From a virus (Duplodnaviria; Heunggongvirae; Uroviricota; Caudoviricetes), in the IMG/VR virus record IMGVR_UViG_2802429220_000008, positions 1-18,046 of that record: a DNA stretch of 18,046 nt; one strand, 5' to 3'. The number at the start of each line of letters is the position of its first letter. Within the stretch, counting starts at the first letter, position 1. Below the pieces are notes generated by a model. The model was not told where the DNA came from and ran no database searches. It saw only the letters and a program-made list of their open reading frames with translations. Made by a program: the position numbers and the translations under genes. Below are positions 700 to 14,156 of the stretch, piece after piece.

Positions 700-884
700 T
701 GACGTTCTCCGAAAATACCAAGTTCAAGAAGAGCAATTCGGGAAAGTATGGAATTATCATTGAGCAGATAAGGCTCATATTTCCTCATATTAATGGCATC
801 TTCAGTAAACTCCCGGTTACTGAGCAGAACACCAATATCAAAACAACCTTCAGACGTATTAACGTTTGGTAATAACGTTTCCAT
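696..884 (-). CDS. dicB: DicB-like cell division inhibitor (MinC-dependent FtsZ-ring inhibitor)
   Basis: 62 aa METLLPNVNTSEGCFDIGV...FTEDAINMRK matches remembered DicB N-terminus (MKTLLPNVNTSEGCFEIGV...); GAGGA 8 nt upstream of ATG; same length as DicB. Confidence 0.75.
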   Translation of the reverse strand: METLLPNVNTSEGCFDIGVLLSNREFTEDAINMRKYEPYLLNDNSILSRIALLELGIFGERQ

Positions 885-1062
885 TATCGCGTCCTCAACA
901 ATGAATTTTGTGATGCAGTGCCTGGTGCCTCCAGGTGACGTTAACCAGTTAACAATTAACGCCGGATTAGTTGATGCTCGTTACGCCCGTAAAATACCGC
1001 CTTACTGCTTTAACTGTTCCGCGTGCGCATAGCCGCATTCACCGCATCACAAAATTCACTTT

Positions 1063-1110
1063 AAAAAGGGCGGATATCCGTTTCCGCCGAATCACCAGAA
1101 AAGTGATAAC
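1063..1110 (-). ncRNA. dicF: Candidate DicF-like sRNA ending at an intrinsic terminator about 180 nt upstream of dicB
   Basis: Minus strand reads ttttctggtgattcggcggaaacggatatccgcccttttt: 6-bp stem ggcgga/tccgcc, 8-nt loop, U-tract; the downstream stretch aaagtgaattttgtgatgcggtgaatgcgg matches my memory of the dicF-dicB spacer. 5' end not determinable from sequence. Confidence 0.35.
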
Positions 1111-1403
1111 AGAGGGCGTTGCAGCGGGGTTGTCACTTAAGCGTATGGTCAACCTGACAACCCGGTGTCCTCAGCGGGGAAGGAATAACCCCGCCATACT
1201 TACCGCCGCGCCATTTCGCGGATTGCCACAACCGGAAGCGCACGGTCGAATTAAATTTAACGACTACCTACAGAGAGACGAACTTCGCCGTGCGCTTTCG
1301 CGTTATGCCCTGACTTTTCAGGGATATATCCTTTTCAGTAAACTGTCAGTGCCGGATTCTTATCCGTGTCCGGCGCACGCACTCTACCTCACCTGTGAAT
1401 AAA

Positions 1404-1790
1404 TTAATGATTAATTGATATTTTGTTGTTTGATTCAACTTTCCCATCGGATGTGTGATGCTTTAAATCACAGGAATTAATACTGCTTGCTGTAAAATGA
1501 TTTTCAAGGGGAGCTATTCGAATCCCTTTCTTTTTCATTAACAAGCCAAATCCTTTATTAATGATGTCCATTAATTCCAGGAAGTATTTTTCATGTAAAT
1601 CCTGGTTATCAGAGAGCTGCTTCTCTTCGCACAGACCGATAAAGGCACGACGCACGTTACCGGATATAGTATCGATGGTTTCTTTTTCTACAGTACTCAG
1701 GTCAAGAGTCGCCAGTTGAGAGCGAACCACATTCGATGCCATTTCCTGGAATGGTACTGGTAAATCTTTAAATTCCATCGTCAACCTCAT
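1404..1790 (-). CDS. Hypothetical early-operon protein (possibly an intact YdfB/YdfC-like gene)
   Basis: 128-aa ORF with ATGA overlap to the upstream YdfA-like gene; position between ydfA-like and dicF-like elements as in the Qin dicB operon. Confidence 0.6.
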   Translation of the reverse strand: MRLTMEFKDLPVPFQEMASNVVRSQLATLDLSTVEKETIDTISGNVRRAFIGLCEEKQLSDNQDLHEKYFLELMDIINKGFGLLMKKKGIRIAPLENHFTASSINSCDLKHHTSDGKVESNNKISINH

Positions 1791-1942
1791 CAGTCAGTGT
1801 TTCTGGTTAACCAGCGACGCTCGCCAGCTTCAGTTTTAAACGTTTTGCTTCTGGTATACGTCATCGCGGTGAACGTACCGTCCTGGTTGGGGAACACACC
1901 ACATACCAGAGATTCGTTGTTGCCAAGATCGATAGTATCCAT
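1790..1942 (-). CDS. YdfA-like small protein (DUF1391-type)
   Basis: 50 aa MDTIDLGNNESLVCGVFPNQDGTFTAMTYTRSKTFKTEAGERRWLTRNTD; GAGG 5 nt upstream of internal ATG at 1942 (track ORF 1790..2020 starts further upstream without an RBS). Confidence 0.6.
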   Translation of the reverse strand: MDTIDLGNNESLVCGVFPNQDGTFTAMTYTRSKTFKTEAGERRWLTRNTD

Positions 1943-2118
1943 GCTGACCTCATTTCCCCTTAACGCCGGGGTAGCGGAACAAAAACCTGCTGCATAGTTA
2001 AAGTTGAACCCTGCCGTCATGTTCTTACGCCTCGGGCTGGCTACTTAACCCCTGACCACTGCCGGGTAACTCGAAGTATTTCCCTGCGTTCTGTGGGGCG
2101 TGGTGGGGTAGTGGAAAT

Positions 2119-2148
2119 AATCTACAATTAAAAACTGTTTTGTGTCAA
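2119..2148 (-). promoter_or_regulatory. Candidate leftward early promoter (PL-like) embedded in the operator palindrome
   Basis: On minus strand: -35 TTGACA (2148..2143), 18-bp spacer, -10 TAGATT (2124..2119); faces the ydfA-like/dicB operon. Confidence 0.4.
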
Positions 2149-2160
2149 CAGTTTTTAATT
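2126..2160. promoter_or_regulatory. Operator palindrome (OL-like): aattaaaaactgtt-ttgtgtc-aacagtttttaatt
   Basis: Perfect 14-bp inverted arms around a 7-bp centre; same half-site (AAAAACTGT-N9-ACAGTTTTT) as the palindrome at 3161-3195 on the other side of the repressor operon. Confidence 0.65.
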
Positions 2161-2171
2161 GTTGTATTGGG

Positions 2172-2197
2172 CAAAAAAACTCCCTCGAATGAGGGAG
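2172..2197 (-). terminator. Intrinsic terminator ending the repressor-antitoxin-toxin operon
   Basis: Stem ctccctc/gagggag with loop gaat; on the minus strand it is followed by a 7-8 nt U-tract; lies 18 bp past the toxin stop. Confidence 0.6.
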
Positions 2198-2214
2198 TGT
2201 GAAAATTGTTCAGT

Positions 2215-2502
2215 TCAGATAGGGAAGGGAAATTGTCGGCGGGCATGCACAATATTTGCAATTTCAATGCTTGAAGCTGCTACTCGGTACAAAACGATAT
2301 AATTAGGGTGAACCACAATTTCCCGCAAACCGGATACTCGATCACTTGGCGGATATAGATATGGATGCTCAGAGAGGGCTAAAACAGACGTTTCAATCCG
2401 TATTTTTAGTCTGCGTGCTGCAGGAATATTTTCCTTAGCAATATAGGCTACGATCTGACGCAAATCATCGCGAGCAGATGGTAGCCACAAAATGGGTAAC
2501 AT
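2215..2502 (-). CDS. parE: ParE/RelE-superfamily type II toxin (ParE-like)
   Basis: 95 aa with typical ParE features (LWLPSARDDL, GLREIVVHPNYIVLYRV, IANIVHARR); TAATG stop/start overlap with the upstream antitoxin gene. Confidence 0.85.
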   Translation of the reverse strand: MLPILWLPSARDDLRQIVAYIAKENIPAARRLKIRIETSVLALSEHPYLYPPSDRVSGLREIVVHPNYIVLYRVAASSIEIANIVHARRQFPFPI

Positions 2503-2693
2503 TACTCGCTCCTGTTAGTTACAGCAATTTGAGCAATAAGATTCTCCATTTCAGCCATTACCTCATCATGTGGAATTGAGGGACGAGGGTCAGCAAGGCT
2601 TGACGCCACTTTAGCGCGTAACCATTCGTTGTAACTGTTTTCTTGTTCGGTAGTTTCGAATTCTGAAACTATCGGAGAAAGGGCTGTACTCAT
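2502..2693 (-). CDS. Small antitoxin paired with ParE (PaaA-like, 63 aa)
   Basis: 63-aa acidic ORF immediately upstream of and overlapping the ParE toxin; size and context match PaaA-type antitoxins of the paaR-paaA-parE three-component modules (from memory). Confidence 0.75.
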   Translation of the reverse strand: MSTALSPIVSEFETTEQENSYNEWLRAKVASSLADPRPSIPHDEVMAEMENLIAQIAVTNRSE

Positions 2694-2720
2694 GGCATAA
2701 CTCCTCTTCTTGTACTGTGG

Positions 2721-3122
2721 TCACGCCCGGCGGCTTTTTTGTGCCGCCAACCACCGGGCAATGGTTTCTTCCATTGATTTTTTCTTGTCTTTGATTTCTT
2801 GAAGCATTTTTTCTTGGTCTTCCTCTGGAAACGCACTAAAAGCCTGGAGCAGTTCGCGTTGACGAGGACCAATTTTCATCGTGTCAGGGGTGAAAATTTG
2901 CTCCCCCTCTTCAGGAGGCAATAAAAACCAATGCAATGGATGCCCTGTAACCTCAACCAGTTTATCCAAACTTGAGGCTTTAGGTGTAGCCTTACCGCTG
3001 ACCCATTGTTGAACAGTTTGTTGTGTCACACCAATTCTACGGGCAAGCTCAGCCTGGCTCCATCCAGTTTCCTGAAGAAGCTTGCTGATTCTGTACATAG
3101 ATACTTCTAGGGCGTTCATCAT
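2721..3122 (-). CDS. Prophage repressor, HTH_XRE type without a LexA-like peptidase domain (DicA/PaaR-like)
   Basis: 133 aa; N-terminal HTH (ISKLLQETGWSQAELARRIGVTQQTVQQWVSG), C-terminal SPRQRELLQAFSAFPEEDQEKM similar in style to DicA; divergent from the cro-like gene; operators on both sides. Confidence 0.8.
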   Translation of the reverse strand: MMNALEVSMYRISKLLQETGWSQAELARRIGVTQQTVQQWVSGKATPKASSLDKLVEVTGHPLHWFLLPPEEGEQIFTPDTMKIGPRQRELLQAFSAFPEEDQEKMLQEIKDKKKSMEETIARWLAAQKSRRA

Positions 3123-3160
3123 TATTCAATTTTACAGGTAAATACTGTTAAAAGCATCAC

Positions 3161-3195
3161 AATAAAAAACTGTTGATTGTGTACAGTTTTTTATT
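3161..3195. promoter_or_regulatory. Operator palindrome (OR-like): aataaaaaactgt-tgattgtgt-acagttttttatt
   Basis: Perfect 13-bp inverted arms in the repressor/cro-like intergenic region; same half-site and spacing as 2126-2160; candidate -10 TATAGT at 3208-3213 just downstream. Confidence 0.65.
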
Positions 3196-3231
3196 GTAGG
3201 CTTTGCTTATAGTTTTTTAGAGGAGAGCAAA

Positions 3232-3504
3232 ATGCTAGATAGCACTCGCGAAAAAATTAGGCAGAAATACACTCAAGCTGAAATAGGTCGTTATATGGGG
3301 GTCGCTCAACAGACAGTTTGGCAATGGTTTAGCTTTGACGTTCCCCCAAAGCAGGTAATTCCGTTATGTCAGCTAATGAAGTGGGAAGTTACCCCGCATG
3401 AAATTCGCCCTGATATTTATCCTAACCCAACCGACGGTTTACCTGTTGGATTCAAGGTTAACACATCAAATGCACCGGAGTTGATTCATGAAAATCAAGC
3501 ATGA
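3232..3504 (+). CDS. Cro-like regulator, YdaS family
   Basis: 90 aa; HTH-like AEIGRYMGVAQQTVWQWF and the YdaS-type motif TPHEIRPDIYPNP; AGGAGAG RBS; divergent from repressor. Confidence 0.75.
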   Translation: MLDSTREKIRQKYTQAEIGRYMGVAQQTVWQWFSFDVPPKQVIPLCQLMKWEVTPHEIRPDIYPNPTDGLPVGFKVNTSNAPELIHENQA

Positions 3505-3913
3505 ACACATCCGCATGGCGATGAATGCCTGGGCGCGTCCTGATGGCGAAAAAGTTCCAGTAGCTGGAATAACCCAGGCTTATTTTGAGTTGGGTATGAC
3601 GTTTCCTGAACTGTATGACGACAGCCATCCGGAAGCCCTGTCTCGTAATACCCAGAAAATTTTCCGCTGGGTAGAAAAAGACACCCCTGATGCGGTTAAA
3701 AAAATTCAGGCGTTGTTACCGGCGATCGAAAAAGCAATGCCGCCTCCACTGGTGGCCCGAATGCGCAGCCACAGTTCGGAATATCACCGGGAGCTTGTCG
3801 AGCGACGGGAGCGCCTGGTGAAAGATATCGATGAGTTTGTTGCGGCAGCGATCGTGTTGTTCGATCAGATGAATCGTGGTGGTCCGGCGGGAAATGCCGT
3901 GGTGGCGCATTGA
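3488..3913 (+). CDS. YdaT-family protein (CII-like regulator / toxic when derepressed)
   Basis: 141 aa starting MKIKHEHI, which matches my memory of YdaT; follows the YdaS-like gene with a 17-nt overlap. Confidence 0.7.
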   Translation: MKIKHEHIRMAMNAWARPDGEKVPVAGITQAYFELGMTFPELYDDSHPEALSRNTQKIFRWVEKDTPDAVKKIQALLPAIEKAMPPPLVARMRSHSSEYHRELVERRERLVKDIDEFVAAAIVLFDQMNRGGPAGNAVVAH

Positions 3914-3933
3914 TAACGTGTTCTGGGGGGGGG

Positions 3934-4899
3934 ATGAAGCTCCTTTTTGCTGAACGTCCGCTGGTTATAAACACGCAGCTGGCGATGAAAATTGGTCTGA
4001 ACGAAGCCATCGTGTTGCAGCAGTTGCATTACTGGTTGAGAGATACCGGTTCCGGCATGGAATGTGATGGTGTTCGCTGGATTTATAACACAACAGAACA
4101 ATGGCTGGAGCAGTTCCCGTTCTGGTCAGAGTCAACGTTAAAACGCGCATTTGCAAGTCTGAAAACGCTGGGGCTTTTGCGTTGCGAAAAGCTCAATAAA
4201 TCAAAGCGTGATATGACTAATTTTTACACGATTAATTACGAGAGCGAGCTTTTAAATGGTGGCAAAGTGAGCGAATCCATCAGGTCAAAATGCGCTGCTC
4301 CATCAGGTCAGAATGACACGATGGAAGGGGCCAAAATGGCACGTTCCATTGGTTCAAAACGACTCAATGTCATCGGGTCAAAATGGCCTGATGATCTTAC
4401 AGAGAATACAACAGAGATTACTACAGAGAATAAAAACACTTCTCGTCCGGAAGCTTCGCAACCGGACCCGCAGACGGTTGAACAGGATTTTTTAACCCGA
4501 CACCCTGACGCGGTTGTGTTCAGTGCAAAAAAACGCCAGTGGGGCAACCAGGAAGATTTGGCGTGTGCGCAGTGGATCTGGGGACGAATCGTGAGTCTTT
4601 ACGAGCAGGCCGCCAGCGATGATGGCGAGATTTCGCGACCGAAAGAACCCAACTGGACCGCATGGGCCAACGACGTGCGCACAATGCGGATGCTGGATGG
4701 CAGAACTCACAGACAAATTTGTGAAATGTTTGGTCGGGCGCAGCGGGATCCATTCTGGGTAAAAAATATCATGAGTCCGTCAAAGCTTCGCGAAAAATGG
4801 GATGAACTGGTTATCCGCCTGGGGCGTTCGTCTGTACAGCGTTGCGTGAATCATATTTCTGAGCCGGATACCGAAATTCCGCCGGGGTTCAGGGGGTAA
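3934..4899 (+). CDS. Replication initiator (lambda O-like / YdaU-like) containing the origin
   Basis: N-terminal domain LVINTQLAMKIGLNEAIVLQQLHYWL; internal iteron array plus AT-rich tract; start chosen at ATG 3934 after a G-rich tract (track start 3910 is TTG). Confidence 0.75.
   Translation: MKLLFAERPLVINTQLAMKIGLNEAIVLQQLHYWLRDTGSGMECDGVRWIYNTTEQWLEQFPFWSESTLKRAFASLKTLGLLRCEKLNKSKRDMTNFYTINYESELLNGGKVSESIRSKCAAPSGQNDTMEGAKMARSIGSKRLNVIGSKWPDDLTENTTEITTENKNTSRPEASQPDPQTVEQDFLTRHPDAVVFSAKKRQWGNQEDLACAQWIWGRIVSLYEQAASDDGEISRPKEPNWTAWANDVRTMRMLDGRTHRQICEMFGRAQRDPFWVKNIMSPSKLREKWDELVIRLGRSSVQRCVNHISEPDTEIPPGFRG
4276..4386. repeat. Five iterons at 23-24 bp spacing (candidate replication origin inside the initiator gene)
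   Basis: Core ggtcaaaatg at 4283, ggtcagaatg at 4306, ggccaaaatg at 4329, gttcaaaacg at 4352, ggtcaaaatg at 4376, each preceded by tccatca-like; followed by AT-rich acagagaata repeats at about 4395-4440. Confidence 0.7.
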
Positions 4900-4905
4900 C
4901 GGGCC

Positions 4906-5652
4906 ATGAAAAATATCGCGACAGGTGGTGTTCTTGAGCGTATCCGTAAGCTGACCCCGCAGCATGTAATCGCGCCGTACCGGACAGTGGACGAGTGGCG
5001 CGAGTGGCAACTGGCAGAAGGGCGAAAACGTAGCGAGGAGATCAACCGCCAGAATCGCCAGTTGCGGGTGGAAAAAATCCTGAATCGTTCGGGCATCCAG
5101 CCTCTGCACAGCAAATGCTCGTTTGCGAATTATCAGGTGCAGAACGACGGGCAAAAACATGCGCTGAGCCAGGCAAAATCCATCGCTGACGAACTGATGA
5201 CAGGGTGCACGAATTTTGTGTTCAGCGGTAAGCCGGGTACCGGAAAGAACCACCTTGCAGCCGCCATTGGCAATCATCTTCTGGCGAAAGGTCGCAGCGT
5301 GATTGTGATAACGGTGGCTGATGTGATGCTGGCGTTACACAACAGCTACGACAACAAAAACTCAGGCGAAAAATTTTTACAGGGGTTGTGTGATGTTGAC
5401 CTGCTTGTCCTGGATGAAATCGGAATGCAGCGGGATACGCGCAACGAGCAGGTCACACTGAACCAGATAGTCGACCGCAGAACGGCTTCGATGCGTAGTG
5501 TCGGAATGCTGACGAACCTGAACCACGTAGCGATGAGTACGCTTCTTGGCGAGCGTGTGATGGACCGCATGGTCATGAACGGTGGTCGCTGGGTGAATTT
5601 TAACTGGGAGAGCTGGCGTTCGAATGTCAGACACCTGAGGGTTGTGAAGTAA
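4906..5652 (+). CDS. dnaC: DnaC-like helicase loader (IstB-like AAA+ ATPase)
   Basis: 248 aa; Walker A GKPGTGKNHLAAAIG, Walker B DLLVLDEIG; near-colinear with remembered E. coli DnaC (MKN..., RSGI.PLH..CSF.NY, GMLTN.N, LGERVMDRM). Confidence 0.9.
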   Translation: MKNIATGGVLERIRKLTPQHVIAPYRTVDEWREWQLAEGRKRSEEINRQNRQLRVEKILNRSGIQPLHSKCSFANYQVQNDGQKHALSQAKSIADELMTGCTNFVFSGKPGTGKNHLAAAIGNHLLAKGRSVIVITVADVMLALHNSYDNKNSGEKFLQGLCDVDLLVLDEIGMQRDTRNEQVTLNQIVDRRTASMRSVGMLTNLNHVAMSTLLGERVMDRMVMNGGRWVNFNWESWRSNVRHLRVVK

Positions 5653-5673
5653 TTTTGTCCGGAGGAAATTTTA

Positions 5674-6444
5674 ATGGAAACCGTTTTTGACGCACTGAAA
5701 GCAATGGGAAAAGCCACATCGGTAGAACTGGCCGCGCGACTTGATATCAGTCGTGAAGAGGTTCTCAACGAGCTGTGGGAACTCAAAAGAAATGGCGTCG
5801 TTGATAAAACTGGTCACACCTGGTTTCTGGCTGGCGAAGGTGAATCCCTGGTAACCGAAGAGCGGCCAGTAAAATCTGAAGCACAGGATATGCTGACCGG
5901 GGAGGTCGAACAAAAAGTTACCGCAGACATGATGATTGAGTTTATCGGTCAGGATGGGGCTAAAACGTGTGAGGAACTGGCGGGTAAGTTCGGCATCAGT
6001 ACTCGCAAGGTTGCTTCCACGCTGGCGGTGGTAACTGCAACGGGGCGGCTGGCACGCGTTAATCAGAGCGGTAAATTTCGTTACTGCATGCCGGGCGGTA
6101 ATTTACCAGCAGAGCCGAAAGCAGCATCGGTAACGGAAAATGATGGTAAGGCCTTTCCTCAGCCAGCAGGTGTTGCGTTACCAGTCCGGGAAGCCGCAAC
6201 ACAGGAAGAAATTAAAACAGAAACTGTGGCGGACATTGTGCAGCCGTTGCTATCGTTTACCGAAACGCAAGCAGATGAGCTGATTTTTCCGTCCCTGCGC
6301 AGGGCAAACCTGGCGCTGCGCAGGGCGAAAAGTGATGTTCAGAAGTGGGAGCGAGTCTGCGCCGCGCTGCGGGAGCTGAACAAGCACCGGGATATTGTTC
6401 GACAGATTACTGATTCTTCCCGCCGTGTTGTATCGGAAAAGTGA
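5674..6444 (+). CDS. Hypothetical prophage protein with two tandem winged-helix-like segments
   Basis: 256 aa; GGAGG RBS 8 nt upstream; two similar segments ([30 protein letters not shown] and [31 protein letters not shown]). Confidence 0.65.
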
Positions 6445-6459
6445 TAGCCGGAGGCGCTT

Positions 6460-6855
6460 ATGGCGAAACCTTTTACACACGAACAGCGTGAAGAACTGAA
6501 GGCCCGAATTATCGGGCTGGTACGCAAAAATGAACGCATGACGATATCACAACTGGAGAGAGCGACGGGAGCAGGCTGGCATTCAGTCAGACGTTGCCTT
6601 GTGGATGTACTGGCTTGTGGCGATTTATACATGCCCGGTAAATACGGTGTTTTTACATCAGAACAGGTGTATCGCGTATGGCGTAAGGCAGCGGAGAAAG
6701 CAACCGACCAGACATTGATTCGAAAGTTACCAGACGGAGAAATACGCCGCTACGACAGACAACAGAACATAATCTGTGGCGAGTGCCGGAAGAGTGAAGT
6801 TATGCTGCGTGTACTGGCGTTCTATCAGGGCAATTTTCAGGAGGCGGTACTGTGA
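6460..6855 (+). CDS. Hypothetical prophage protein
   Basis: 131 aa; GGAGG RBS 6 nt upstream of ATG; ends in a 4-nt overlap with the next ORF. Confidence 0.6.
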   Translation: MAKPFTHEQREELKARIIGLVRKNERMTISQLERATGAGWHSVRRCLVDVLACGDLYMPGKYGVFTSEQVYRVWRKAAEKATDQTLIRKLPDGEIRRYDRQQNIICGECRKSEVMLRVLAFYQGNFQEAVL

Positions 6856-6911
6856 GTGAATTAGCTATCAGGCTTCAATTGTCGCTGGCATTCGCATCAA
6901 AGGAGAATGAG

Positions 6912-7496
6912 ATGATCACTTTTACAAAAGAGCAGTTAATCAGTCATGTTAGTGAAAATGTAAAGGCGATGAAATTTGCAGTAAAACAGACAGTATTCAA
7001 AAATTCTCTCGAGGCAATTGAGTTGGATTTAGCACTGGCCCTTGTTGCTCAGGCTTCGCTGGAAGCAGAGCCCGTGCTTTATATGAATCGATTTACCGGA
7101 AAGACATTCTCACTGGAAGAGCAACCCGGTGCTGATAAGGAACCGGAAATATACGTGCCGCTATATGCTGCCCCGCCAGACAGCGCCGCCATGCTTCAGG
7201 CTGGAAACTTTCGGGAAAATAAGGGTTCGTCAACCAATAATTTTCGGGAAATCTCGGAAACGTCAACCAACTATCCGGTAACTCCGGATGGTTGGATAAG
7301 CTGTAGTGAGCGAATGCCGGATGATGGTCAGCACGTAATTATTTTATGTGATGGCGCATTCGTTCTTTATGCGCAATATCGAGACGGTGAGTTTTTTGAT
7401 GTAGTCCGTAATGGTGATGAATTTTTCGAAACACAGAGCCGCAATGTAACCGACTGGATGCCGCTACCAGAACCGCCGCAGGAGGTGCGCCAATGA
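6912..7496 (+). CDS. DUF551-domain phage protein
   Basis: C-terminal DGWISCSERMPDDGQHVIILCDG...WMPLPEPP is DUF551-like; start placed at ATG 6912 after AAGGAG (track start 6852 is GTG without RBS). Confidence 0.65.
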   Translation: MITFTKEQLISHVSENVKAMKFAVKQTVFKNSLEAIELDLALALVAQASLEAEPVLYMNRFTGKTFSLEEQPGADKEPEIYVPLYAAPPDSAAMLQAGNFRENKGSSTNNFREISETSTNYPVTPDGWISCSERMPDDGQHVIILCDGAFVLYAQYRDGEFFDVVRNGDEFFETQSRNVTDWMPLPEPPQEVRQ

Positions 7497-7576
7497 TCTG
7501 GCCTGAAGCCTTTGCAATTACAGGCGTTGCTATAGCTATTGATTTTTTAGTATATGTTATTTGTCGGTGGGGGTAA
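7493..7576 (+). CDS. Small hydrophobic peptide (27 aa)
   Basis: MIWPEAFAITGVAIAIDFLVYVICRWG; GGAGGTG 5 nt upstream; ATGA overlap with the DUF551 gene stop. Below the track size cut-off. Confidence 0.45.
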   Translation: MIWPEAFAITGVAIAIDFLVYVICRWG

Positions 7577-7611
7577 AAACGTTCGCCGGGATTCACACCA
7601 AAGGAGGGAAT

Positions 7612-7716
7612 ATGTCGGATGATATTTCACTGGCAATGGAAGGTGCTCTGGCTGTTATTGCTGTTGTGGGCGTTTACTGCCTGGTTGTGTTTTTGATGGA
7701 TCGACTAGGGAACTGA
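7612..7716 (+). CDS. Small hydrophobic membrane peptide (34 aa)
   Basis: MSDDISLAMEGALAVIAVVGVYCLVVFLMDRLGN; AAGGAGGG RBS 5 nt upstream. Below the track size cut-off. Confidence 0.5.
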   Translation: MSDDISLAMEGALAVIAVVGVYCLVVFLMDRLGN

Positions 7717-7758
7717 ATTCATTACGATATGGGAATTCCCATATCGGGTAAAAACGGT

Positions 7759-7786
7759 TTGCGGTAAAGCGAGAGTTAAGTAGAAT
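7759..7786 (+). promoter_or_regulatory. Candidate promoter of the hok/mok mRNA
   Basis: -35 TTGCGG (7759-7764), 16-bp spacer, -10 TAGAAT (7781-7786); predicted 5' leader begins with gcgggtgcttgagg, complementary to the 3' end of the transcript. Confidence 0.45.
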
Positions 7787-7849
7787 TGCTGCGGGTGCTT
7801 GAGGCTGTCTGCCTCGGGCATGCCACCGTAAGGCAGACAGAGAAAAGCC

Positions 7850-7915
7850 CCAGTTAACATTACGCGTCCTGCAAGACGCCTAACATTAATCTGAGGCCAA
7901 TTTCATGCTAGACAT
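7850..7915 (-). ncRNA. Predicted Sok-like antisense RNA region (boundaries uncertain)
   Basis: Inferred from hok-family organisation; candidate minus-strand promoter -35 TTGCCT (7948..7943), 17-bp spacer, -10 TAACCT (7925..7920) would give an RNA antisense to the mok start; no clean terminator found. Confidence 0.25.
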
Positions 7916-8117
7916 ATGTAGGTTAGCCTCTTACGCGCCGAAAGGCAAGGAGAAGCAGGCTATGAAGCAGCAAAAGGCGATGTTAATCGCCCTGATCGTC
8001 ATCTGTATCACCGTCATAGTGACGGCACTGGTAACGAGGAAAGACCTCTGCGAGGTACGAATCCGAACCGGCCAGACGGAGGTCGCTGTCTTCACAGCTT
8101 ACGAACCTGAGGAGTAA
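7905..8117 (+). CDS. Mok-like reading frame (in-frame leader encompassing hok)
   Basis: 70-aa ORF MLDICRLASYAPKGKEKQAMKQQK... with GAGG 8 nt upstream; same frame as hok, resembling the arrangement remembered for MokC/HokC. Confidence 0.5.
   Translation: MLDICRLASYAPKGKEKQAMKQQKAMLIALIVICITVIVTALVTRKDLCEVRIRTGQTEVAVFTAYEPEE
7962..8117 (+). CDS. hok: Hok/Gef-family type I toxin (HokD/RelF-like, 51 aa)
   Basis: MKQQKAMLIALIVICITVIVTALVTRKDLCEVRIRTGQTEVAVFTAYEPEE: single TM helix plus conserved TRKDLCE...REVA.F.AYE motif. Confidence 0.9.
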   Translation: MKQQKAMLIALIVICITVIVTALVTRKDLCEVRIRTGQTEVAVFTAYEPEE

Positions 8118-8185
8118 GAGACCTGGCGAGGGAGAAATCCCTCGCCACCTCTGATGAATCAGGCATCCTCAACGCACCCGCACTT

Positions 8186-8212
8186 AACCCGCTTCGGCGG
8201 GTTTTGTTTTTT
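8186..8212 (+). terminator. Intrinsic terminator of the hok transcript
   Basis: Stem aacccgc/gcgggtt, loop ttcg, followed by ttgtttttt; sits directly after the fbi-like element at 8167-8181. Confidence 0.7.
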
Positions 8213-8284
8213 CCTGGCATTCTGGTTTACAATTCGCACGCCAGCCTGAACAACTGGCACCTGCTGCGCCAGCAGAGACAACCG

Positions 8285-8563
8285 ATGGCGCACGATACCA
8301 AATTATACAATTCTGATGATTCTGCCGTCTTTGCCAGCAGGCGCGGACGGTGTTTTCACGCATTCAAATCTGACTGGTACCAGCATCCCCCATGCACTGA
8401 AGAACAGGCCGAATGGCTCATTCAGTGTTACCGCAGGCGCGGATGCGAGGTTAAAAAAGCCCTTAGCCTCGACTACCGTCACTGGATAATCTCCGTCAGG
8501 CTCCCTTACTCCGAACGGCCACCGCGTCCGTCCCGCACATTCCAGCAACGGATCTGGAGGTAA
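8285..8563 (+). CDS. Hypothetical protein (position equivalent to rem in Qin); start uncertain
   Basis: ORF 8204..8563 in track; ATG at 8285 avoids overlap with the hok terminator; weak RBS; Cys/Arg-rich product. Confidence 0.4.
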   Translation: MAHDTKLYNSDDSAVFASRRGRCFHAFKSDWYQHPPCTEEQAEWLIQCYRRRGCEVKKALSLDYRHWIISVRLPYSERPPRPSRTFQQRIWR

Positions 8564-8564
8564 T

Positions 8565-9614
8565 GTGCGGGTATTACTTCGACCTGTTCTGGTACCGGAA
8601 CTCGGTCTGGTTATCGTTAAGCCAGGCCGTGAATCAATGTCAGCATTCCATAACGGCAGAATACTGGTGGAGCCGGAACCAAAAAGCATGCGAGCTCTGC
8701 CGTCCGGGGTTGTACCTGCCGTTCACCAGCCGCTGGCGGAAGATAAATCACTACTGCCATTTTTCAGCGATGAGCGGGTGAGCCGTGCTGCGGGTGGCGC
8801 TGGTGCACTGTCTGACTGGTTATTACGTCACGTGAAATCCTGCCAGTGGCTACACGGTGATTATCATCACAGCGAAACCGTCATTCACCGTTACGGTACC
8901 GGCGCAATGGTGTTGTGCTGGCACTGCGACAACCAGCTGCGTGACCAGACATCCGAATCACTCGAGCAACTTGCTCATCAAAACCTGTCAGCATGGATGA
9001 TTGACGTCATCGGTCACGCAATAAGCGGTACGCAGGAGCGTGAATTATCTCTGGCTGAATTATCCTGGTGGGCGGTCCGCAATCAGGTGGCGGACGCGCT
9101 ACCGGAAGCGGTATTACGTCGTTCGCTGGGGTTGCGTGCGGAAAAAATCCGCTCCATGTACCGTGAAAGCGACATCGTACCGGGAGAGCAGACCGCCACC
9201 AGCATACTGAAACAGCGCACAAAAAATCTTGCGCCGCTGCCTCACGCCCACCAGCAACAGAACCCACCACAGGAAAAGACGGTGGTCAGCATTGCCGTTG
9301 ATCCTGAGTCTCCGGAATCTTTCATGAAACGACCTAAACGTCGCCGCTGGGTTAACGAGAAATACACTCGCTGGGTGAAGACACAGCCGTGTGCGTGTTG
9401 TGGTAAGCCAGCCGACGATCCCCATCACCTGATTGGTCATGGTCAGGGCGGAATGGGGACAAAATCTCACGATATTTTCACGCTACCGCTGTGTCGGGAG
9501 CATCATAACGAGCTTCATGCGGATCCGCTGGCGTTCGAAGAAAAGCATGGTTCTCAGGTTGATTTAATTTTTCGTTTTCTTGATCACGCCTTTGCAACCG
9601 GTGTGCTTGGGTAA
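8565..9614 (+). CDS. DUF968-domain protein (YdfU-like)
   Basis: 349 aa; C-terminal Cys/His-rich motif CACCGKPADDPHHLIGHGQGGMGTKSHD...LCREHHNELH; GGAGG just upstream of GTG start at 8565. Confidence 0.75.
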   Translation: MRVLLRPVLVPELGLVIVKPGRESMSAFHNGRILVEPEPKSMRALPSGVVPAVHQPLAEDKSLLPFFSDERVSRAAGGAGALSDWLLRHVKSCQWLHGDYHHSETVIHRYGTGAMVLCWHCDNQLRDQTSESLEQLAHQNLSAWMIDVIGHAISGTQERELSLAELSWWAVRNQVADALPEAVLRRSLGLRAEKIRSMYRESDIVPGEQTATSILKQRTKNLAPLPHAHQQQNPPQEKTVVSIAVDPESPESFMKRPKRRRWVNEKYTRWVKTQPCACCGKPADDPHHLIGHGQGGMGTKSHDIFTLPLCREHHNELHADPLAFEEKHGSQVDLIFRFLDHAFATGVLG

Positions 9615-9627
9615 AAGGGGGGTATTG

Positions 9628-9990
9628 ATGTGTATAGAGTTTGTTTTGCCTTACCCGCCGACGGTGAATACTTACTGGCGACGTCGTGGCAGCACATATT
9701 TTGTATCAAAAGCCGGGGAGCGTTATCGCCGGGCAGTGGCGTTTATTGTTCGCCAGCAGCAGTTGAAATTAAGCCTGTCCGGACGGCTGGCAATAAAAAT
9801 TATTGCAGAGCCACCGGATAAGCGCCGCCGTGACCTGGACAATATTCTGAAAGCACCGCTGGATGCGCTGACGCACGCGGGGTTGTTAATGGACGATGAA
9901 CAGTTTGATGAAATCAATATTGTACGTGGTCAGCCAGTATCTGGTGGACGGCTGGAAATAAGAATTACAGAGGTGGGTGTGCATGAATAA
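9628..9990 (+). CDS. rusA: RusA Holliday junction resolvase
   Basis: 120 aa from ATG 9628: LPYPPTVNTYW...RRRDLDNILKAPLDALTHAGLLMDDEQ...GGRLEIRITE, colinear with E. coli RusA. Confidence 0.9.
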   Translation: MCIEFVLPYPPTVNTYWRRRGSTYFVSKAGERYRRAVAFIVRQQQLKLSLSGRLAIKIIAEPPDKRRRDLDNILKAPLDALTHAGLLMDDEQFDEINIVRGQPVSGGRLEIRITEVGVHE

Positions 9991-10672
9991 CCAGTATTTA
10001 CAGTTTGTTCGTGAGCAACTCATGATTGCCACTGCAGATCTCAGTGGGTCGACAAAAGGCCAGCTGGAAGCCTGGCAGGAAAATGCCCTGTTCGATACAG
10101 GGCGTTACAGACGCAAAAAAATTCGTTACCGCGATGAGGTAACTGGAAAAATGATCACGCGGGATAATCCCCCGATCCAGGGTAAACAATCACTGGCGAA
10201 AGGCTCATCAATTGCGCTGGTCAGTCCTGTTGAGTTTGCAACATCATCGTGGCGGCGTGCCCTTCTGGAACTGGAAGAACATCAGAAGGCGTGGTTGTTG
10301 TGGTGTTATGGCGGAAACATTTGCTGGGAGCATCAGATCGCGATAACGCAGTGGGTGTGGAGTGAATTTAAAACTCAGTCCGGCTCCAGAAAAATTGCAG
10401 TGAAAACGCTGGAGCGTGTGAAGAAGTTGATCTGGCTGGCGGCACAGGATGTCAGAGGATGGGTTACCGGGTGTGAGGTCTACCAGAGACAGGAGCTTGC
10501 CAGACTGTGTGGAGTTAAGCCTGATAACTGGAGCCATAATTATGCGAACTACTGGCGTGAGATGTGCGATATTTTTAAGCGCCTCGATAGAGAATCCTTG
10601 ATTTGCTCCGTGAAAATAAGAGCGCAACAAAAAGCGACCTTTTCACGACGAGATATTGCAAAAGTCAATTAA
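9983..10672 (+). CDS. Late-gene antiterminator Q-like protein (Qin QuuQ / phage 82-type), assigned mainly by position
   Basis: 229 aa directly after rusA and before a short terminated region; start ATG 9983 overlaps the rusA stop with GAGG upstream; no sequence-level confirmation. Confidence 0.5.
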   Translation: MNNQYLQFVREQLMIATADLSGSTKGQLEAWQENALFDTGRYRRKKIRYRDEVTGKMITRDNPPIQGKQSLAKGSSIALVSPVEFATSSWRRALLELEEHQKAWLLWCYGGNICWEHQIAITQWVWSEFKTQSGSRKIAVKTLERVKKLIWLAAQDVRGWVTGCEVYQRQELARLCGVKPDNWSHNYANYWREMCDIFKRLDRESLICSVKIRAQQKATFSRRDIAKVN

Positions 10673-10732
10673 ATCGCGTATGTTTCGTATAAATCTGATA
10701 TTTTGCCGATTTTGTACGCGATGGCAAAGTAA

Positions 10733-10760
10733 GAAAAAACCACCGCTAGGTGGTTTTTTT
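10733..10760 (+). terminator. Intrinsic terminator about 60 bp after the Q-like gene (tR'-like candidate)
   Basis: A-tract, stem ccacc/ggtgg with loop gcta, then 7 Ts; candidate promoter elements TTGCAA (10656-10661) and TATGTT (10679-10684) upstream. Confidence 0.6.
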
Positions 10761-10883
10761 ATGTCCGAAAATCTCGTCAGTACAGTAAACGCGCTGGTGG
10801 TGGTGAATACCGGTCTTTCAGCTTGCTGGCTTTTTTGACAAGAGTTATTGGTGTGTCACGTTAACCGGAAAAGGGAAAAAGAC

Positions 10884-11081
10884 ATGCTGAAACAGCAGGA
10901 TATGACCGAAACCGCCAGAGTGGTGTTTAATGAATTAAGCGTCACTGAACCGGCGACAGTCGGGGAGATTGCGCAGAATACTTATCTTTCACGTGAACGC
11001 TGCCAGTTAATACTGACCCAGCTTGTTATGGCGGGGCTGGCAGACTATCAGTTCGGTTGTTACAGACGCCTTCAGTCCTGA
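10884..11081 (+). CDS. Small winged-helix-like protein (65 aa)
   Basis: MLKQQDMTETARVVFNELSVTEPATVGEIAQNTYLSRERCQLILTQLVMAGLADYQF; start moved to ATG 10884; followed by a terminator. Confidence 0.5.
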   Translation: MLKQQDMTETARVVFNELSVTEPATVGEIAQNTYLSRERCQLILTQLVMAGLADYQFGCYRRLQS

Positions 11082-11091
11082 AGGCTTTTTT
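11068..11091 (+). terminator. Intrinsic terminator
   Basis: Stem gccttcag/ctgaaggc around loop tc, then tttttt; overlaps the stop codon of the preceding small gene. Confidence 0.6.
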
Positions 11092-11232
11092 ATTTGTGGT
11101 AAATGGGCGGCTGGTGGGTGTTAGGGGCACTCACCAGCCATCTGCTCATGCGTCCGGATCACAAGCAAACCTCAGGCCCATCTGCTTTGCGCAAAAGCAG
11201 AATGAGCCTATCAGAGACAGGCTTAATGATCC

Positions 11233-12291
11233 ATGCTTAATACTGTAAAAATATCCAGTTGTGAGTTAATCAACGCCGACTGCCTGGAATTTATCCGGTC
11301 GTTACCCGAAAATTCTGTTGACCTGATAGTCACGGACCCGCCGTACTTTAAAGTGAAGCCTGAGGGCTGGGATAACCAGTGGAAGGGCGACGATGATTAC
11401 CTGAAGTGGCTGGACCAGTGTCTTGCGCAGTTCTGGCGGGTGCTGAAACCTGCCGGAAGTCTTTACCTGTTCTGTGGCCATCGCCTGGCATCTGATATCG
11501 AAATCATGATGCGTGAACGCTTCAGTGTGCTGAACCATATTATCTGGGCGAAGCCGTCCGGACGCTGGAACGGGTGCAACAAGGAAAGCCTGCGGGCGTA
11601 TTTTCCGGCAACAGAGCGCATTCTGTTCGCGGAACATTATCAGGGGCCGTATCGTCCGAAAGATGCCGGGTATGAGGCGAAGGGCAGGGCACTGAAACAG
11701 CATGTGATGGCCCCGCTGATTGCTTACTTTCGTGATGCGCGCGCTACCCTGGGGATAACGGCAAAACAGATTGTGGATGCCACAGGAAAGAAAAACATGG
11801 TGTCGCACTGGTTCAGTGCCAGCCAGTGGCAGTTACCGAACGAGGATGATTACAGAAAACTTCAGGTGCTGTTTGCCCGGGTGGCAGAAGAGAAACATCA
11901 GCGGGGTGAACTGGAAAAGCCACATCACCAACTGGTCAGCACATACAGTGAGCTGAACCGGCAGTATGCCAGCCTGCTGGAAGAGTACAAATCACTGCGG
12001 CGTTATTTTTCCGTATCGGCAGCCGTTCCTTATACGGATGTCTGGACGCACAAGCCTGTGCAGTATTATCCGGGCAAACATCCCTGTGAAAAACCGGCAG
12101 ATATGTTGCGGCAAATGATTACCGCCAGCAGTCGTCCGGGTGACCTGGTTGCAGATTTCTTCATGGGGTCCGGTTCGACAGTCAAAGCAGCGATGGCGCT
12201 GGGGCGTCGTGCAATTGGTGTCGAGCTGGAGGCTGAACGTTTTGAGCAGACCGCAAGGGATGTACAGAATTTAATCAGAAAGAGAGAGTGA
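11233..12291 (+). CDS. Orphan DNA methyltransferase (N6-adenine or N4-cytosine, DPPY motif)
   Basis: 352 aa; DLIVTDPPYF near the N-terminus and FFMGSGST near the C-terminus; no adjacent restriction endonuclease ORF. Confidence 0.8.
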   Translation: MLNTVKISSCELINADCLEFIRSLPENSVDLIVTDPPYFKVKPEGWDNQWKGDDDYLKWLDQCLAQFWRVLKPAGSLYLFCGHRLASDIEIMMRERFSVLNHIIWAKPSGRWNGCNKESLRAYFPATERILFAEHYQGPYRPKDAGYEAKGRALKQHVMAPLIAYFRDARATLGITAKQIVDATGKKNMVSHWFSASQWQLPNEDDYRKLQVLFARVAEEKHQRGELEKPHHQLVSTYSELNRQYASLLEEYKSLRRYFSVSAAVPYTDVWTHKPVQYYPGKHPCEKPADMLRQMITASSRPGDLVADFFMGSGSTVKAAMALGRRAIGVELEAERFEQTARDVQNLIRKRE

Positions 12292-12331
12292 TATTGCTGA
12301 ATTTATTCTGTAACGTTATCATTATGTTATC

Positions 12332-12407
12332 GGCCCTTTAGCTCAGTGGTGAGAGCGAGCGACTCATAATCGCCAGGTCGCTGGTTCAAATCCAGCAAGG
12401 GCCACCA
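12332..12407 (+). tRNA. tRNA with CAU anticodon (Met, or Ile2 if lysidine-modified)
   Basis: Manual fold: acceptor ggccctt/aagggcc, D-arm gctc..gagc, anticodon loop cuCAUaa, T-arm gctgg-ttcaaat-ccagc, 3' ACCA. Confidence 0.85.
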
Positions 12408-12408
12408 A

Positions 12409-12474
12409 CCGCCACTAGCTCATCAGGAAAGAACGTCACCCTGTGCGAGATTCGGAGTCCCCGGTGGCGGTCCA
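12409..12474 (+). other. tRNA-like remnant (perfect acceptor stem and CCA but too short, no canonical T-arm)
   Basis: ccgccac ... gtggcgg followed by tcca, 66 nt overall, sitting between two intact tRNAs where Stx-type phages carry three tRNAs. Confidence 0.35.
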
Positions 12475-12487
12475 TTATCAGCATTAT

Positions 12488-12564
12488 GCGTTGTTAGCTC
12501 AGCCGGACAGAGCAATTGCCTTCTAAGCAATCGGTCACTGGTTCGAATCCAGTACAACGCGCCA
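12488..12564 (+). tRNA. tRNA-Arg (anticodon UCU)
   Basis: Manual fold: acceptor gcgttgt/acaacgc, D-arm gctc..gagc, anticodon stem attgc/gcaat with loop cuUCUaa, T-arm cactg-gttcgaat-ccagt, GCCA end. Confidence 0.85.
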
Positions 12565-12575
12565 TATTTATTTAC

Positions 12576-12617
12576 CTGGCTCGCTTTTGCGGGCCTTTTT
12601 TGTATCTGCGTTACACC
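12576..12617 (+). repeat. Terminator-like element, copy A (ggctcgc-tttt-gcgggcc + ttttttgtatctgcg)
   Basis: Imperfect hairpin plus T-tract directly downstream of tRNA-Arg; about 80 percent identical to 13173-13213. Confidence 0.6.
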
Positions 12618-12653
12618 ATTAACTAATAAATCGAGTGCTTATCAGGAGGCTAT

Positions 12654-12878
12654 GTGAAAAAACTGATGGTGACGATTGGTCCGTTCGAAACAGAAGTTAG
12701 TTTTCGTGTTGTTCAGGGGGAGAGTGTACTTGTTGAAGATGTATTTCATGGAAAATCAACAGGTCCTTATGTAAAAGAATATCTTATCGACGCCACGGAT
12801 GAAAATATTGAGGTGGTGTACGATTCCGTCAATCACCCTGATTTGATCATTAAGGCAAAATTGAAGCCACTTTATTGA
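12654..12878 (+). CDS. Hypothetical small protein (74 aa), AT-rich cargo gene
   Basis: AGGAGG 4 nt upstream of GTG start; MKKLMVTIGPFETEVSFRVVQGESVLVEDVFHGK...; no family recognised. Confidence 0.5.
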   Translation: MKKLMVTIGPFETEVSFRVVQGESVLVEDVFHGKSTGPYVKEYLIDATDENIEVVYDSVNHPDLIIKAKLKPLY

Positions 12879-12930
12879 TCTGACCGGGAGCAATCATAAA
12901 ATATCTCTGGGTACCCACAAGGAGATAAAT

Positions 12931-13140
12931 ATGTTTGTTTCTGAAGTGTTAATGGAAGATAAGGACAACAAAGGATGGGTTAAAGGTTGGGCTGTGGTAA
13001 GAAGCTCGCCCTGGCATCTTGTTGGGGTTTTTGCGACAGAGGAAGACGCAGAAACGGAAGCAAGAAAGATGGGAGATAAGTACGAGGTTCACTATGGCTC
13101 GCATCGAACAGGAAGTGATGATTTTGTCTGGGGGGAGTAA
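12931..13140 (+). CDS. Hypothetical small protein (69 aa)
   Basis: AAGGAG 6 nt upstream of ATG; MFVSEVLMEDKDNKGWVKGWAVVRSSPWHLVGVFATEEDAETEARKMG...; no family recognised. Confidence 0.55.
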   Translation: MFVSEVLMEDKDNKGWVKGWAVVRSSPWHLVGVFATEEDAETEARKMGDKYEVHYGSHRTGSDDFVWGE

Positions 13141-13172
13141 CAGTCGTTTAACCCCAGAATAATCCCGTAACT

Positions 13173-13213
13173 GAGGTCGCTATTGGCGGCCTTTTTTGTA
13201 TCCGCGCCACGCC
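13173..13213 (+). repeat. Terminator-like element, copy B (ggtcgc-tatt-ggcggcc + ttttttgtatccgcg)
   Basis: Second copy of the element at 12576-12617; together they bracket the two small ORFs. Confidence 0.6.
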
Positions 13214-13329
13214 CGGCACATATCAACCACAGAGCCTTTCGGGGGTGAGCTTACGGAGTGGTCAGTGTGACTTTCTCTGTGGGCAGATCGCTCCCGGGCG
13301 TTGGCTCACCCACCCAAAGGAACGTCACG

Positions 13330-13761
13330 ATGTTTGGTATTTTCAAAAAGAAAACCCGCAGAGCAGCAGCGGAAATTAAAAAGTTTGAGAAACGTGATCT
13401 GGCACAGGCGGTTATTAATGCTGCCTATCTGGTGGCCTATGCAGATGGTGAATGTGAGGCTTCAGAGAAAGCGAAGATCGAGCAGGTCTTGCGTAACCAG
13501 CCAGCGTTGTCCGCGTTTACGTCAGAAATTAATGCTATCAGTGCCACGATCACAGGTCAGCTTGACACCAACTTTAAAATTGGTCGTCGAGCGGCGTTGC
13601 GTGAAATTGAAGATGTGAAACACGATACGCGTGAAGCGGAAGATGTGCTGGATGTGGCGGTGGCCATTGCTGAAGCAGATGGTGAAATTGAGCCGGAAGA
13701 GCGTAAGGTTCTGGAAGAGATCGCCGGTGTTCTTGGCCTGCGACTGGAGAACCACCTGTGA
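13330..13761 (+). CDS. TerB-like domain protein
   Basis: 143 aa from ATG 13330 (AGGA 8 nt upstream); two TerB-like repeats AYADGECEASEKAKIEQVL and AEADGEIEPEERKVLEEIAGVLGL. Confidence 0.6.
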   Translation: MFGIFKKKTRRAAAEIKKFEKRDLAQAVINAAYLVAYADGECEASEKAKIEQVLRNQPALSAFTSEINAISATITGQLDTNFKIGRRAALREIEDVKHDTREAEDVLDVAVAIAEADGEIEPEERKVLEEIAGVLGLRLENHL

Positions 13762-13922: not shown

Positions 13923-14156
13923 CCGGGTATCAGTCATGCCCTGAAAATTTTAAATGTCTCACAATTCAGACGGTTGACAGTTGTCTGGTTTGCGGGGAGT
14001 TTGTTAAAAGAAACTGGCATGGTGAATCCCCCTGAGCGGAGGGGCATATCAGCGCAGGTGTTTCTACTCTATCCTTTCTGTGCGGGTTCAGGTGCTGATA
14101 CTGAACTCACCGGGAGGCACCCGGCACCATGCAAGAAAAAGAATGTGCATGCAAAC

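Follow-up and report, generated by a model that had tools for sequence, protein, structure and literature searches.

Escherichia coli contains small single-pass inner-membrane modulators of larger membrane proteins, such as AcrZ, MgtS, PmrR and KdpF, to which YohP, with a length of only 27 amino acids (aa), can be added. Small hydrophobic single-helix peptides of the inner membrane are likewise encoded on lambdoid prophages by the Hok/Gef family (PF01848), which includes a hokD/hokW-type gene adjacent to the locus described here. This locus consists of two open reading frames (ORFs) of 27 aa (ORF1) and 34 aa (ORF2) that lie between a DUF551 gene and hok in a DNA of 18,046 nt from a virus of the Caudoviricetes (IMG/VR record IMGVR_UViG_2802429220_000008, positions 1 to 18,046), which is referred to in its full length as the window. 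A locus of the same gene order, DUF551, (ORF1), ORF2 and mok/hok, is present in E. coli O157:H7 Sakai at ECs_5710, where XECs145 is one of 465 intergenic ORFs that were judged to be translated by ribosome profiling (RIBOseq) (Hücker et al. 2017, PMC5597208).

Both ORFs encode proteins, for which a location in the inner membrane is predicted. The best reading of the combined evidence is that they are two independent small inner-membrane proteins that are unlikely to be toxin partners of antisense-RNA systems, and it is rather probable that ORF1 and ORF2 are genuine phage genes, distinct from each other, whose very small products cross the inner membrane once and likely bind a membrane protein. 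The micro-gene ORF1 is conserved and widespread but almost entirely missing from annotations, whereas the product of ORF2 had been recorded before as a hypothetical protein that is translated.

Conserved coding micro-ORFs upstream of hok

ORF1 occupies positions 7493-7576 of the plus strand (ATG at 7493-7495, TAA at 7574-7576) and encodes the peptide MIWPEAFAITGVAIAIDFLVYVICRWG, a predicted single-helix membrane micro-protein. As had been noted in the original prediction, its start codon overlaps the TGA stop codon of the DUF551 gene (7494-7496) in the arrangement ATGA (7493-7496), and its Shine-Dalgarno (SD) sequence, AGGAGGT (7480-7486), is located within the last codons of that gene, 6 nt before the ATG. 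The DUF551 gene itself extends from 6912 to 7496 on the plus strand when the RefSeq start is used (its longest ORF begins at 6852), matches Pfam PF04448 with an E-value of 6.8e-21, and is annotated as the coding sequence (CDS) WP_000627694.1 in an identical locus. ORF2 (7612-7716, plus strand) encodes the peptide MSDDISLAMEGALAVIAVVGVYCLVVFLMDRLGN, again a predicted single-helix membrane micro-protein, and is preceded by the SD sequence AAGGAGG (7601-7607), 4 nt before its ATG.

Both SD sequences were read directly from the DNA, each with a match of 7 nt, in agreement with the earlier claim of two ORFs of these lengths with strong ribosome-binding sites. The single transmembrane helix that had been predicted for each peptide is equally supported: the best 17-residue Kyte-Doolittle windows reach 2.32 for ORF1 and 2.95 for ORF2, the grand averages of hydropathicity (GRAVY) are 1.42 and 1.33, respectively, and the AlphaFold2 model of ORF2 is one helix comprising residues 3-33, with a predicted local distance difference test score of 90.6. 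The combination of both traits is exceptional in the window. Among the 569 start-to-stop ORFs of 20-60 aa on its two strands, an SD match of at least 6 nt is found for three and a GRAVY of at least 1.2 for 16, and the two traits coincide only in ORF1 and ORF2 (2/569), even with relaxed cut-offs, compared to an expectation of about 0.08. The ribosome-binding regions of ORF1 and ORF2 are no more structured than shuffled sequences (z of +1.1 and +0.55, respectively).

The reading frames proved to be conserved in relatives, and neither stops nor frameshifts refuted the earlier claim: all 129 ORF1 homologues are intact, and variation in ORF2 is biased towards third codon positions. To retrieve the ORF1 homologues, IMG/VR was scanned with a degenerate DNA pattern, which is constrained only within codons 1-6 and 24-26, and there only in part, and which does not enforce an open frame. 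The 129 matches all have exactly 27 codons and comprise 56 different DNA sequences and 37 different proteins. When the same pattern was applied to one genome per bacterial species, true members were found only in Escherichia and Shigella, in addition to two tiny contaminant-like contigs. About 28 chance matches occurred in unrelated phyla; many of these contain stops inside the matched span, and none is a hydrophobic 27-codon ORF with a stop at codon 28. Thus, the open frame of ORF1 is not created by the pattern itself.

At the columns that the pattern leaves unconstrained, variability is 0.23 at the third codon position, versus 0.12 at the first and 0.09 at the second. The mismatched residues have a mean BLOSUM62 score of +0.45 in the ORF1 frame, compared to -0.58 in the antisense frame that shares its wobble positions and -0.95 to -1.85 in the remaining frames. 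Mean pairwise identity is 0.70-0.94 inside the ORF, and it falls to 0.38 over the 12 nt that follow the stop codon and to about 0.36 beyond position -25, in a comparison that spans 27 different downstream contexts. The block of similarity is the ORF itself, ending at the stop codon.

The family has the consensus M-x-W-P-[ED]-A ... [YF]-x-[IV]-C-R-W-[GWR] over 27 codons together with the ATGA overlap, and the allele in the window has all of these features; an allele of 25 codons with an in-frame 6-nt deletion has also been seen. Full-length tblastn matches with 50-63% identity were obtained in 92 phage records, including the Shiga toxin (Stx) phages 933W, VT2-Sakai, VT1-Sakai, BP-4795 and Min27, and also Vequintavirinae (Av-05 and TH18, rV5-like lytic phages), a Punavirus and small siphoviruses. 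The commonest allele is present in 1631 of 5426 complete E. coli genomes, with up to seven copies per genome, so that the family is present in at least 30% of them, and the ORF1-ORF2 segment of the type in the window is found in 673 genomes. ORF1 also occurs in 181 plasmid records, which are mostly non-mobilizable replicons of about 95 kb, P1-like by size, and include plasmids of Salmonella, Klebsiella and E. fergusonii. No copy of ORF1 is present in E. coli K-12 behind the annotated yfdS gene of prophage CPS-53.

The genes upstream of ORF1 fall into several C-terminal classes, and in all of them a GGAG/GGGG motif at the same distance and the ATGA overlap are retained. A Pfam scan of seven upstream genes yielded two with DUF551, four without a hit and one, L0139 of 933W, with only a sub-threshold match to Laminin_II. 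ORF1 as an obligate partner of DUF551 was rejected, because five of the seven genes tested lack that domain.

The original prediction had described both ORFs as unannotated. This holds for ORF1, which is without annotation at all RefSeq loci and phage records inspected, but not for ORF2 (see below). The distance from the start of the match to the end of the upstream CDS is exactly 3 nt (ATGA) in six ORF1-bearing phages, which belong to four kinds, and none of the six records annotates ORF1; at the corresponding site of Shigella phage POCJ13 (825-908 of its extracted locus), two ORFs on the minus strand were called by the annotators instead. The databases contain only a few GenBank entries of ORF1 as "hypothetical protein", often artificially extended by 40-57 aa at the N-terminus. 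Neither ORF1 nor ORF2 could be credibly assigned to a family of Pfam, NCBIfam, PHROGs or PADLOC: Pfam returned nothing at E-values up to 1, the best PHROG E-values were 0.01-0.7 (among them the holin phrog_785 at 0.11), and PADLOC gave nothing meaningful. The peptide strings and locus names of the two ORFs were not found in the main texts of papers, and neither peptide is contained in those supplements of an Enterobacteriaceae microproteome preprint that are available as text. A lipoprotein signal peptide with cleavage before Cys24 was also considered for ORF1 on reading the sequence and dropped, as there is no basic N-region and no lipobox.

ORF2 corresponds, with the same coordinates, to the RefSeq CDS WP_001278450.1 (hypothetical protein) in an identical locus, and to ECs_5710 in prophage Sp6 of O157:H7 Sakai in the current record. 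Its protein cluster has 83 members, and the exact sequence is present on at least 1000 contigs. Over positions 7470-7760, the Sakai locus differs from the window at one synonymous base, and the ORF2 peptide is identical to the C-terminal 34 residues of XECs145. In lysogeny broth (LB), XECs145 was covered with 79 reads per kilobase per million mapped reads (RPKM) in the transcriptome and 346 in the translatome, giving a ribosomal coverage value (RCV) of 4.35 at a coverage of 0.99; in brain heart infusion medium, the respective values were 121, 150, 1.14 and 0.84, and footprints were nearly absent under cold and osmotic stress (PMC5597208). These values can be compared to the thresholds for translation in that study, which were 1 RPKM, an RCV of 0.25 and a coverage of 0.5 (PMC5597208). 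XECs145 was predicted to be an inner-membrane protein with one transmembrane segment and noted to be annotated as a hypothetical protein in another enterohaemorrhagic strain; it was called as a 54-aa product from an upstream start, and the study reports neither a function nor an analysis of its family nor a connection to hok (PMC5597208). The strong SD sequence, the RefSeq model and subfamily B (see below) point to the 34-aa start rather than to the 54-aa start.

A tblastn search with ORF2 gave weak matches of 44-50% identity in four lambdoid phages, again just 5' of hok, and a pattern scan of IMG/VR resolved two subfamilies. Subfamily A is the 34-aa type of the window, and subfamily B has 29 aa, VLVLKCALAIAAVMAIYCLAVVLMDRLSD, with a GTG start 5 nt after GGAGG; alleles that have GTC in place of the preceding GTG confirm this start. 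Segregating sites are distributed over the three codon positions as 4/1/10 in A and 7/3/17 in B, with ratios of non-synonymous to synonymous polymorphism (pN/pS) of 0.20 and 0.28, respectively. Between A and B, over the 23 shared codons, pS is 0.60 and pN 0.26, and the replacements are of the V/I, A/G and N/D kind. A change of the start codon from ATG to GTG is tolerated, and in all A alleles the SD sequence is conserved or reads AGGGAGG. The subfamilies differ in charge, with an acidic N-terminus in A and Lys5 in B, an opposite distribution. It should be noted that a terminator-like site at 7667-7683 lies within ORF2, which is most simply a by-product of its GTT/TTT-rich hydrophobic codons.

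The ORF2 cassette and the hok region

The position of both ORFs just upstream of a hok locus, as stated in the original prediction, is confirmed. The hok/sok locus (7793-8117, plus strand) comprises the hok leader/sok region (7793-7967), mok (7905-8117) and hok (7962-8117); the leader region matches Rfam RF01794 with 114 bits, hok matches the Pfam family HOK_GEF with an E-value of 2.3e-23, and the gene is named hokD by RefSeq. A putative hok promoter at 7759-7786 on the plus strand (TTGCGG, a 16-nt spacer and TAGAAT), just 5' of the 5' end of the hok mRNA, was deduced from the sequence in combination with position 7793, at which the Rfam match starts. Its -10 region and the leader are invariant across six aligned loci; a promoter scan of the interval in the window did not call it.

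ORF2 is tightly associated with hok. The hok leader follows ORF2-A at a spacing of 74-76 nt in all 49 loci with sufficient flanking sequence, and it follows ORF2-B at 42 nt in 51 of 61 loci, about 55 of which contain a hok CDS and the rest a diverged hok or none. The reverse does not hold, because hok without ORF2 is frequent: in 933W and E. coli 2013C-3033 the ORF1 stop runs directly into the hok promoter, and 4068 genomes match the wider region including hok, versus 673 that hold most of the ORF1-ORF2 segment. The ORF2-A segment of about 175 bp is bracketed by two copies of the 11-nt direct repeat GGGTAAAAACG, the left of which (7571-7581) includes the ORF1 stop codon, while the right copy (7746-7756) forms the other border. 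The loci without ORF2 (933W, 2013C-3033) carry one copy, which joins the ORF1 stop to the hok promoter. Thus, ORF2-A looks like an inserted cassette, and the repeat pair resembles a target-site duplication or a recombination scar.

Between the ORF2 stop codon and the putative hok promoter lies the perfect 22-bp palindrome CGATATGGGAATTCCCATATCG (7725-7746), 8 nt past the stop and 12 nt before the -35 element, with an EcoRI site at its centre. The surrounding RNA (7700-7770) folds at -22 kcal/mol (z of -3.87) into a hairpin without a U-tract, and the palindrome also accompanies hok in PPompW phages that lack ORF2. It could be a barrier to read-through, a stabilizer of an RNA 3' end or a protein-binding site. 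In subfamily B, the motif TTGAA(T/G)-17 nt-CATATT is located about 45 nt before the GTG start (e.g. in phages Tritos and HannyBb). It is present in most B alleles, a few of which have an altered -35 element, and its retention in two backgrounds with differing spacers makes it a candidate promoter of ORF2-B.

The window is a segment of a lambdoid prophage, and its positions 7300-7950 are shared with 100% identity by many strains, among them E. coli O103:H2 12009. In the identical RefSeq locus, the gene order is replication genes, DUF1627, DUF977, DUF551, hokD, DUF968, RusA and antiterminator. A sub-threshold Rfam match to isrK (8126-8207; 27.7 bits versus a gathering score of 50) overlaps both the 3' region of hok and a clear intrinsic terminator, which is located at 8186-8203 and precedes a T-run. 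The next gene (8285-8563; WP_001341388.1, hypothetical protein) matches PHROG 1212 (E-value 5.9e-36, unknown function) and no Pfam family, and carries a frameshift in at least one relative. The window also contains genes for tRNA-Met (CAT; 12332-12407) and tRNA-Arg (TCT; 12488-12564), both downstream of the antiterminator region. tRNA genes at such positions are common in Stx-type lambdoid prophages; an ORF of the size of stx was not noticed near them.

Alternative explanations

The original prediction suggested that the peptides could be small membrane toxins. In this case, one or both would be type I toxins that damage the membrane like Hok; an antisense RNA or the structure of the mRNA would restrain them, and their release would lead to death or arrest of the cell. 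Size and hydrophobicity are indeed typical of type I toxins, both peptides being small and hydrophobic in that sense, a bona fide hok/sok locus adjoins, ORF2 is nearly always found beside hok, and two weak promoter-like sites are present on the minus strand of the interval (7636 to 7609 and 7577 to 7549). However, such sites are not above the level of shuffled sequences (three found versus 1.4 +/- 1.3), no equivalent antisense site was found on reading the ORF2-B sequences, and the Rfam sok/hok-leader model matches only 7793-7967, with nothing significant over 7480-7720. Neither ORF matches HOK_GEF or another toxin family, and both SD regions are strong and unstructured, whereas type I toxins have ribosome-binding sites that are sequestered. 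In addition, the gene to which ORF1 is coupled is an ordinary early gene in all contexts inspected, and ORF2-B occurs without hok in some contigs, as does hok without ORF2 in many. ORF2 is, moreover, heavily translated in growing, uninduced Sakai cells in LB (RCV 4.35, RPKM 346; PMC5597208), which disfavours a potent toxin, because the cells would not tolerate it. Taken together, these features of the sequence and the published footprints make a type I toxin role of ORF1 or ORF2 unlikely, and the suggestion of small membrane toxins is not supported.

A more far-reaching proposal is that ORF1 is a mobile "tail-gene" cassette that has spread for a general membrane task in infection and that, at the same time, ORF2 is a functional partner of Hok; that both parts apply is doubtful. 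If they did, the task of ORF1 might be, for example, superinfection exclusion, the blocking of a host membrane defence or transporter, or the timing of lysis, and it would be shared by lambdoid, rV5-like lytic and P1-like phages. ORF2 would modulate the insertion of Hok or the killing by it, and hok loci of the ORF2 type would be two-peptide modules.

The region of ORF2 might, alternatively, be a regulatory part of the hok locus, i.e. an upstream transcription unit or upstream ORF plus a hairpin that insulates or tunes the hok/sok promoters, with the peptide being incidental. The tight, fixed spacing to the hok leader in both subfamilies, the strong hairpin between ORF2-A and the hok -35 element, and the possible promoter motif before most ORF2-B alleles would fit. 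Nevertheless, this explanation is improbable: there is purifying selection on the peptide, visible in the low pN/pS values and the third-position bias, A and B differ by conservative replacements, the palindrome goes with hok in the absence of ORF2, ORF2-B occurs without hok, and most hok loci have no ORF2.

Finally, ORF1 might not be a gene, and its conservation might be due to a DNA or RNA element, to an antisense ORF of 85 codons (7339-7596, minus strand) that covers the 3' end of DUF551 and all of ORF1, or to a membrane anchor that is added to DUF551 by a -1 frameshift. No stop interrupts the antisense frame in 55 of 56 alleles, and its pN/pS is 0.38. However, it shares the wobble positions of ORF1, and its openness and low pN/pS are automatic, since a T or C as second base of a sense codon results in antisense codons that begin with A or G and cannot be stops. 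The value of pN/pS alone cannot separate the two frames, and the distinction was made by the conservativeness of the substitutions and the module boundaries: replacements in the antisense frame are non-conservative, as described above, and the borders of the antisense ORF would be located in flanks that are unrelated between loci. It was therefore rejected as the shadow frame of a hydrophobic ORF. As to the frameshift, ORF1 is in the -1 frame of DUF551, which is open for at least 16 codons upstream in the class of the window, and the label "DUF551" is attached to some of the partial entries that databases contain for the ORF1 frame. However, there is no slippery heptamer, the frame is shut 2-5 codons upstream in several contexts, and no long fusion of DUF551 and ORF1 exists among 5.8 billion clusters, the longest having 74 aa, and the fusion was likewise rejected. 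That ORF1 is not a gene is thus very improbable.

Mode of action and relation to known systems

As two genuine small membrane-protein genes, ORF1 and ORF2 would be expressed in different ways. ORF1 can be regarded as a self-contained "tail" module, which would consist of the SD sequence, the last codons and the stop of the preceding early gene, and the overlapping ATG. The overlap of this module with the upstream stop codon as ATGA suggests that ORF1 would be made by re-initiation or direct initiation when the upstream DUF551 or "Ea"-type gene is translated, and its timing would be that of the phage early operon. The ORF1 helix is predicted to span the bilayer, with Trp3, Pro4 and the acidic residue 5 at one interface and Cys24-Arg25-Trp26 at the other; the end with the Arg would be cytoplasmic according to the positive-inside rule, and Gly11, Ala13, Ala15 and Ala17 may form a small-residue face for helix packing. 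The cassette of ORF2 has a length of about 175 bp and separates ORF1 from the hok promoter. The ORF2 peptide would likewise be a helix, with LMDRL as its conserved tail, and would be made from its own ribosome-binding site, including in lysogens such as Sakai (PMC5597208). Both peptides would insert into the inner membrane and may bind a host or phage membrane protein or oligomerize there. The other suggestion of the original prediction, that they could regulate membrane proteins, would thus agree with the present data.

Several observations weigh against this interpretation of the two ORFs. For ORF1, the interior pN/pS is only 0.44, which is similar to that of the antisense frame (0.38) that is open in 55 of 56 alleles. 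The allele in the window, which is the one that has spread across O157, O103 and related strains, has an Asp at position 17 in the middle of the helix (7541-7543, GCT to GAT), where the closest relatives have Ala or Thr. Rare nonsense alleles exist, namely at codon 3 in phage POCJ13 (TGG to TAG) and at codon 26 in two IMG/VR contigs (TGG to TGA), and ORF1, with 27 aa, was below the 30-aa cut-off of the Sakai RIBOseq study and hence outside its set. For ORF2, the XECs145 interval opens 57 nt upstream of the ATG, so that its footprints are not start-resolved, and they could also be inflated by multi-copy mapping. An exhaustive HMMER search with ORF2 against 1.84 billion representatives returned only near-identical E. 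coli sequences, and it failed to recover even subfamily B. In addition, the topology according to the positive-inside rule is ambiguous and differs even between ORF2-A and ORF2-B, and the proposed mode of action, which is the most likely one, is an argument by analogy throughout.

The results would be useful in several respects. ORF1 clearly illustrates how standard pipelines miss a conserved gene. It is present in about one third of complete E. coli genomes, often in multiple copies, it occurs in phages of very different lifestyles, and it would be a straightforward addition to annotation and to phage protein family libraries. ORF1 and ORF2 sit in Shiga-toxin-type prophages of pathogenic E. 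coli, and early-region accessory genes of such prophages affect induction, host killing and competition between phages. The near-constant adjacency of ORF2 and hok raises the testable question of whether ORF2 is a so far unrecognized third component of hok/sok modules. Both peptides are tiny and easy to synthesize and tag, which makes such tests cheap. If both are ordinary accessory membrane peptides, the outcome is still a useful correction of annotation, without a conceptual advance; as phage-borne small membrane proteins they are of use for annotation and only modestly surprising.

Among the known systems, Hok/Gef peptides share the general format of ORF1 and ORF2, but ORF1 and ORF2 lack a sequence match to them, the Cys-containing periplasmic tail, a leader ORF of the mok type, a recognizable antisense RNA of the Sok type and the fold-back architecture of the mRNA, and ORF2 is, moreover, translated in growing cells. 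DicB of the Qin prophage is a soluble protein of 62 aa with a different mechanism. It is a small prophage protein that alters the function of a host inner-membrane protein and phage susceptibility (PMC6832061), and may thus be a plausible functional analogue of ORF1 and ORF2, in a conceptual sense only.

The class of AcrZ, MgtS, PmrR, KdpF and YohP is a functional class and not a homologous family, and ORF1 and ORF2 have no sequence similarity to its members. They further differ from them in being phage-borne and in being confined to Escherichia and Shigella phages, P1-like plasmids and some plasmids of Salmonella and Klebsiella. ORF1 and ORF2 share with this class a similar length (27-49 aa), the single helix, aromatic or charged residues at the membrane interface, a strong ribosome-binding site of their own or coupling within an operon, and the fact that such genes are often missed by annotation.

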